Positions 1,888 to 2,275 of a stretch of DNA of 2,275 nt are shown here, piece by piece. The translations under genes were made by a program, and so were the position numbers. Every line of letters starts with the position of its first letter. Position 1 is the first letter of the stretch. Source of the stretch: Escherichia coli (GTDB lineage: Bacteria > Pseudomonadota > Gammaproteobacteria > Enterobacterales > Enterobacteriaceae); the NCBI RefSeq assembly GCF_003334405.1, contig NZ_QOWM01000038.1. One strand, written 5' to 3'. The notes below the pieces were generated by a model, which ran no database searches, was not told where the DNA came from, and was given only the letters and a program-made list of their open reading frames with translations.

Positions 1888-2275
1888 ATGATATTTAACC
1901 GTAATAAAAAACGAGATGAACAACATAATTCTGCTGTTGTTTTGCCATCAACTGAAAACGTATTCTCTGATTTTATTAAGAATAATCCAGCTTTGATAAC
2001 CAATGCTTTTACAGCTATTGGGGAGGTTGATTGTTTTACTAAAGTACCCTTACTCTCAAATAAGGAATCAGAGTTTTTAGGCATTCTTTCACGTAATATT
2101 ATACCTGATTATTCCGTTTTTCCCAAAATACGGCTCATTGAATTTGTTCGTCCTCATGGTAGCGAGGAAGCTGTAAAAGATTTAATCCGTGAAGTGCAGA
2201 ATATAACCTGTGATTTTGTCCTGAAATCATATGATGAAACAGTCCTGGCTGTTATCCAGTTTGGTGAAACCGCAA
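1888..2275 (+). CDS. Hypothetical protein, 5' portion only (runs off the window end); function not recognisable
   Basis: ATG at 1888 with AAGGA (1876-1880) 7 nt upstream, then 129 codons with no stop to the window edge in A+T-rich DNA (checked codon by codon). Translation begins MIFNRNKKRDEQHNSAVVLPSTENVFSDFIKNNPALITNAF... No Walker A, resolvase or H-NS-like N-terminus that I can see. Confidence 0.7.
   Translation, partial: MIFNRNKKRDEQHNSAVVLPSTENVFSDFIKNNPALITNAFTAIGEVDCFTKVPLLSNKESEFLGILSRNIIPDYSVFPKIRLIEFVRPHGSEEAVKDLIREVQNITCDFVLKSYDETVLAVIQFGETA

Follow-up and report, generated by a model that had tools for sequence, protein, structure and literature searches.

A ddp3 (taxD)-Like Backbone Gene with a Predicted, Probably Inactive Nuclease Fold Adjacent to oriT-beta in IncX4-Type Plasmids

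The window, which is the entire 2275-bp stretch of Escherichia coli DNA that was analyzed, contains an IncX-type replicon with iterons, pir, a bis-like ORF and a ddp3-like gene. Four perfect tandem 22-bp iterons, AAACATGAGAGGATTTGCCGTT, are found at positions 170–260. The pir gene, which encodes a Rep3-type initiator, extends from 490 to 1335 on the plus strand and is two genes upstream of the ddp3-like gene. The upstream neighbour of the latter is a plus-strand ORF (1348–1752) for a hydrophobic protein of 134 amino acids, which was named bis-like by its position from PMC3402527; no NCBIfam family was found for it. One copy of the long inverted repeat of IncX plasmids, oriT-beta (~93 bp), follows on the minus strand at 1779–1871. 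The 5′ part of the ddp3(taxD)-like DUF2726 gene is located at 1888–2275 on the plus strand. An Rfam scan of the whole window at E ≤ 1 gave no match. Two further iteron copies are present just upstream of pir (399–430), and one of these pir-proximal iterons overlaps a 10-nt inverted repeat (399–408 and 444–453) extending to the start region of pir. Such a layout of iterons and inverted repeat is the typical arrangement of a gamma-origin with autoregulation.

More than 440 IncX4-type plasmids match the window solely at 1325–2275, with identities of 96–99%, and the pir/iteron part is matched by six plasmids only. The Pi protein of the window is 40% identical to that of the IncX4 plasmids, and the corresponding values for the Bis and DUF2726 proteins are about 95–96%. 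Judged from these alignments, the replicon is a mosaic (1–1400 versus 1400–2275) with a junction near the end of pir. No replicon type is assigned by MOB-suite to NZ_LT795507 (L001), the closest relative of the window.

The reading frame of the ATG at 1888 is open up to the end of the window, for 129 codons and one additional base. A Shine-Dalgarno sequence, AAGGA (1876–1880, plus strand), appears 7 nt 5′ of this ATG, and AGGA is also kept before the ATG in a more distant relative, L004. Mononucleotide shuffling of the 387 nt of the ORF (35% G+C) produced no stop-free sequence in 20,000 trials. The start and the N-terminal sequence M(I)F(K/N)RNK are conserved among the 59–68%-identical homologues that are present on other Enterobacterales plasmids. 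Comparison with the L004 gene (65% identical) by the Nei–Gojobori method gave a dN/dS of 0.125, with dS saturated at ~1.9. The DNA at the ORF runs on in six E. coli plasmids at ~99% identity, and the complete gene was recovered from NZ_LT795507, where it is 528 bp long and encodes 175 amino acids, with 129 of the 129 windowed residues identical. The window carries codons 1–129 of 175, or the first 74% of a real gene. In NZ_LT795507 the end of the gene is followed by a hairpin with a 12-bp stem (terminator) and then by a convergent gene, and the gene is therefore monocistronic. The first-pass annotation was right in describing a genuine ORF with a good ribosome binding site and only its N-terminal part in the window, and the 3′ extension that it proposed did yield the full 175-codon gene; in place of the operon partners for which it proposed to inspect the neighbourhood, a monocistronic gene with a convergent neighbour was found. 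On its plus strand, the window contained no credible sigma-70 promoter for the gene. A weak promoter candidate, TAGACA-16-TACCAT, appears in NZ_LT795507 inside its differing copy of the palindrome described below.

The repeat between bis and the gene was identified by comparison with relatives and with the published descriptions, in which the long inverted repeats of the IncX plasmids are oriT-alpha and oriT-beta and ddp3 is near the second (PMC3402527, PMC3332091). In related plasmids the ~93-bp repeat is also present, inverted, upstream of taxA/ddp1 (oriT-alpha), and the end of the repeat is ~16 nt from the ATG of both taxA/ddp1 and the ddp3-like gene. A MOBP-type nick motif, 5′-CTATCCTG|C-3′, is found on the minus strand at 1783–1791 (GCAGGATAG on the plus strand), with the nick position taken from the MOBP consensus (C/T)ATCCTG(C/T) (PMC3772185). 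The motif is abutted by a 42-nt palindrome (1791–1832) with the outer arms GACAATC and GATTGTC. The minus strand of the gap between bis and the ORF reads 5′-GGACAATC...GATTGTC TATCCTG|CATTG. The outer arms of the palindrome are conserved and its core differs among plasmids. The predicted folding of the transferred strand of the repeat, at –21.3 kcal/mol, is much more stable than that of shuffled sequences (z = –4.8). Among the complete relatives examined, the motif, palindrome and flank occur as exactly two inverted copies, located before taxA/ddp1 and before the ddp3-like gene, respectively, in L001, in the IncX4 plasmid pMCR1.2-IT (L003) and in the IncX1 plasmid pOLA52. In L004 and L010, too, the nick motif is found at the two sites. 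The repeat also contains a G+C-rich hairpin that is followed by TCTTTTAAAA in a terminator-like arrangement (1849–1867, plus strand), directly adjoining the ribosome binding site on its 5′ side. The same hairpin-TCTTTTAAAA element precedes taxA at oriT-alpha. Its possible functions are those of a terminator for bis, an attenuator or a site of protein binding.

The window and its closest relative differ at 23 of 2275 bp, and 21 of these differences are within the palindrome core and the short spacer that follows it (1799–1842 in the window; 9799–9842 in L001). The arms of the palindrome are altered together, so that the hairpin is preserved. The alpha and beta copies are alike within complete plasmids and unlike between plasmids, and the core of the window is nearer to that of the distant L004 than to that of L001. 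This pattern looks, from the aligned copies, like concerted evolution or cassette-like exchange. In the divergent IncX-like L010 the alpha/beta repeat (5700–5900 and ~1040–1200) apparently continues for well over 100 bp past the nick side of the palindrome, which far exceeds the ~93 bp common to the IncX4 lineage.

The ddp3-like protein was located by tblastn in 466 plasmid records, with a query coverage of at least 80% in 447 of them. The plasmids are of conjugative type in 456 of the 466 records and are mostly IncX4-type plasmids of 30–35 kb from Escherichia, Salmonella and Klebsiella. Among them are mcr-1 plasmids typed as IncX4, for example pMCR1.2-IT, and the gene is found with cargo present or absent. 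The RefSeq name of the protein is "DUF2726 domain-containing protein". In L004–L006 the order Rep3, 136-aa ORF, ddp3-like gene is kept, and genes for TaxA/TaxC, ParA/MipZ, H-NS and a topoisomerase are found around it; the contig of L007 (P0026) is too short for its context to be seen. The remote relatives P0027 (35% identity) and P0028 (25% identity) occupy the same location in IncX-like backbones. The ddp3-like gene is part of the plasmid backbone and not cargo, because it is present in 466 records and its place is kept down to 25–35% protein identity.

In the IncX4 plasmids the pap2-mcr-1 cassette is directly 3′ of the ddp3-like gene and convergent with it (1953–4762 in pMCR1.2-IT). The location of the IncX4 cargo mcr-1-pap2 just downstream of the DUF2726 gene has been published (PMC12915395), and the arrangement in a published survey is DUF2806-mcr-1-pap2-DUF2726. 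In the cargo-free L001, this place (10416–10550) has nothing but the terminator hairpin and some small hypothetical genes.

The order repX(pir)-bis-ddp3 has been reported for most IncX plasmids (PMC3402527, PMC3332091). In pOLA52 (IncX1) it is represented by pir (34891–35727), bis (35767–36213), the repeat and a gene for "DNA distortion polypeptide 3" (36350–36703). The window has the same series of pir, bis, oriT-beta repeat and gene, with the same ~16 nt from repeat to ATG, as is found for DDP3/TaxD of R6K and the IncX1–X3 plasmids. Since the order, the spacing and the oriT-beta repeat all agree with pOLA52, the gene is the positional equivalent of ddp3/taxD. It is very probable that the gene is a ddp3-class backbone gene, the counterpart of ddp3 (taxD) in the IncX4 lineage. 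The first-pass annotation had stated that the gene did not look like those expected next to pir-bis, which is contradicted by the published IncX order and by pOLA52. It had also set its reading against a match to a well-characterised housekeeping gene; ddp3/taxD answers half of that description, as a named gene that is poorly characterised.

A search of Pfam assigned the ddp3-like protein to DUF2726 (PF10881) with an E-value of 1.6e-13 and 50.9 bits, with residues 53–156 aligned to positions 2–110 of the 126 in the model. The only NCBIfam match is DDP3 (NF041452), with an E-value of 5e-7 and 30 bits for residues 51–166 against nearly the full model, and the equivalog cut-off of 140 bits for DDP3 is not reached. 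The earlier statement that no family could be assigned is replaced by these two matches, of which the second is below its cut-off. The syntenic proteins P0028 and P0027 also match the NCBIfam DDP3 model. For the DDP3 of pOLA52 the only Pfam match is DUF2726, at a sub-threshold E-value of 0.022. A broad DUF2726 profile that includes the IncX4-type family was aligned with a 17-member DDP3 alignment using hhalign, which gave a probability of 96% and an E-value of 3.9e-9 over 110 columns (residues 52–172 versus 5–115). With a single DDP3 sequence, the narrow profile of the IncX4-type family gave unconvincing probabilities of 17% and 28%, and it was only through the broader DUF2726 profile that the two families were linked. 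Only 23 proteins were obtained when 1.8 billion representatives were searched exhaustively with the narrow profile as HMM; they were useful as a source of intermediates, and DDP3 itself was not reached by this search. Orthology with DDP3 is therefore a matter of synteny and remote homology, because the score is 30 bits versus 140 and the narrow profile gives 28%.

A PDB sequence search with the ddp3-like protein gave no match. AlphaFold models of the ddp3-like protein and of the pOLA52 DDP3 both find PD-(D/E)XK nucleases, with the same top PDB neighbours. The ddp3-like protein is accordingly modelled with a PD-(D/E)XK (restriction-endonuclease-like) fold of the Vsr/DUF559-like kind. An N-terminal extension (residues 1–50) precedes helix 1 and strands 1–3 of the predicted nuclease-like core (residues 51–129). 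DUF2726 was listed among the PD-(D/E)XK phosphodiesterases, with function unknown, by Steczkiewicz et al. (PMC3424549). No prior structural classification of DDP3 was found in the literature.

The pattern shared by the canonical DUF2726 proteins from the exhaustive search is E...KVRL.D...H.DFV...IELDD.SH...R.RD. The H, E, D, H and D of this pattern that are replaced in the ddp3-like protein are present in 12, 13, 11, 11 and 11, respectively, of 14 canonical sequences. The replacements are H→T107, E→Q124, D→G126, H→T130 and D→K/R137, and they are nearly invariant among 13 family members. E60, K80, R82, an acidic residue at 85 and D109 are kept in the family. The ddp3-like protein resembles the canonical DUF2726 proteins in the E...KVRL.D...DFV core and in the alpha-beta-beta-beta-alpha-beta fold. 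The canonical proteins are basic, usually have an N-terminal hydrophobic helix and often a C-terminal topoisomerase-type zinc ribbon, and carry the motif H..D..ELDD.SH..R.RD. Unlike these, the ddp3-like protein has the motif T..D..QFGE..T..KK and a pI of 5.2, and the N-terminal hydrophobic helix is absent from it. The pI values for DDP3 and for one canonical DUF2726 member are 4.6 and 9.6, respectively. Because most of the residues conserved in the canonical DUF2726 proteins are replaced, the ddp3-like protein probably has a nuclease fold without catalytic activity; which residues are catalytic is judged from conservation and from the superfamily.

In L008, a distant IncX-like plasmid, P0028 keeps the ELDD motif and the N-terminal hydrophobic helix. 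A gene of the PLD family (PF13091) is found between bis and oriT-beta in L008 (5359–6612). L008 and P0028 may show the ddp3 locus as it was ancestrally, possibly with activity still present. With the ELDD motif of P0028 still present at the same locus, the locus therefore appears to show stages of degeneration.

The ddp3-like protein is homologous to DDP3 along essentially the entire length of the latter, and the two share the same predicted fold, an acidic composition and losses from the nuclease motif. Unlike DDP3 (117 amino acids), the ddp3-like protein has 175 residues, 58 more, with an extra conserved N-terminal segment of ~50 residues. It retains an RQQKKK helix where DDP3 has a 12-column gap in the hhalign alignment, and it keeps D109, opposite which DDP3 has an invariant proline (P64) in an alignment made by eye. 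It is not an equivalog by the NCBI criterion, and its match to Pfam DUF2726 is significant versus sub-threshold for DDP3. The gene is of the known, poorly understood DUF2726/DDP3 kind, a divergent member and not a new system. What is modestly new is the proposal, made from the models, that the DDP3-class proteins would be degenerate Vsr-like nuclease folds and the IncX4 form an intermediate in that degeneration.

In open-access papers (PMC3332091, PMC3402527, PMC4222815), the product of ddp3, a gene near the second oriT, is described as a protein that assists DNA transfer or distorts DNA. Later papers report that the DDP3 of R6K acts with DDP1 (taxA) and DDP2 (taxC) in DNA distortion. The reading preferred here, with some confidence, is that the gene is the IncX4 counterpart of ddp3 (taxD) and that its product is a non-catalytic, dispensable relaxosome helper. 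The protein would be made beside oriT-beta, in an arrangement like that of taxA-taxC at oriT-alpha, and would assist the TaxA/TaxC relaxosome as a subunit without catalytic function. It would help to open or distort the palindrome–nick region, as the DDP3 of R6K reportedly does, and could act via the retained basic helix (RQQKKK, residues 131–147), via protein contacts or via both. As a general DNA binder, the acidic protein is unlikely. The proposed aid to the relaxase and the location of the gene next to an oriT with a palindrome and TATCCTG|C are shared with the MOBP relaxosome accessories (TaxA/NikA-like proteins, TraJ and TraK of RP4). Unlike the ddp3-like protein, with its predicted nuclease fold, those accessories are ribbon-helix-helix proteins or other small DNA binders.

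The contribution to transfer would be stimulatory and not essential. High-density Tn5 mutagenesis of the IncX4 plasmid pHNSHP23, published in the PixR paper, showed that transfer depends on 18 genes: the pilX genes, taxA, taxB, taxC, tsxA, cds4, cds9, cds10 and cds16. Insertions were tolerated everywhere except in pir, tsxB and mcr-1. When the published deletion primers were placed on an IncX4 plasmid, cds4, cds9, cds10 and cds16 mapped elsewhere than the ddp3-like gene. Because the unnamed essential genes map elsewhere, this indirectly deduced phenotype suggests that the ddp3-like gene is not required for IncX4 transfer at the >100-fold threshold.

A role of the gene in replication or maintenance, for example as an aid to pi and Bis in the opening of the beta origin, with which the oriT-beta repeat overlaps, is unlikely. 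The gene sits in the pir-bis block, but pir has been swapped (40% identity) while the ddp3-like gene has stayed ~96% identical, which argues against tight co-adaptation to the initiator. [quoted passage not shown]

That the protein is an active DUF2726-type nuclease, such as an enzyme of defence, exclusion or DNA processing, is improbable. The significant DUF2726 match, the nuclease fold, the retention of D109, E60, K80, R82 and the acid at 85, and the ELDD motif of the syntenic P0028 would agree with activity, but five canonical positions, including those of Q124 and G126, are replaced near-invariantly. The related DDP3 has additionally lost D109, and the ddp3-like protein is acidic. The PADLOC defence models gave 0 families at E ≤ 1, and the only other Pfam match is an insignificant one to Shedu SduA_C (E = 0.17).

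The suggestion in the first-pass annotation that this might be the first gene of an uncharacterised cargo module came close as to location, since mcr-1-pap2 inserts immediately downstream in IncX4 plasmids (PMC12915395), but as a reading of the gene itself it is effectively excluded by a monocistronic gene with a hairpin after the stop and a convergent neighbour, by its conservation in 466 records (456 conjugative) with or without cargo, by pir-bis-oriT synteny across deep divergence and by purifying selection (dN/dS 0.125).

For the preferred reading of a non-catalytic relaxosome helper, a more specific form is put forward tentatively. The DDP3/TaxD class, including the IncX4 form, might consist of dead Vsr/DUF559-like nucleases that have been domesticated to bind the oriT palindrome in its extruded form (hairpin or cruciform) in a structure-specific manner. 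The locus would then present a series from P0028 (L008), with ELDD and the hydrophobic helix, through the IncX4 form, with D109 and Q124/G126, to the fully degenerate DDP3 of 117 amino acids.

IncX4 plasmids are among the main vehicles of mcr-1, with the mcr-1-pap2 cassette adjoining the ddp3-like gene. With this gene assigned as the equivalent of ddp3/taxD next to oriT-beta, hundreds of plasmids of clinical relevance can be annotated more tidily. DDP3, which was named in 1996, would gain a fold, that of a degenerate DUF2726 nuclease, and a concrete, testable role is suggested for it at the twin oriTs. If these proteins do bind the extruded palindrome as proposed, they would represent a type of relaxosome accessory factor for which no counterpart has been described in other conjugation systems.
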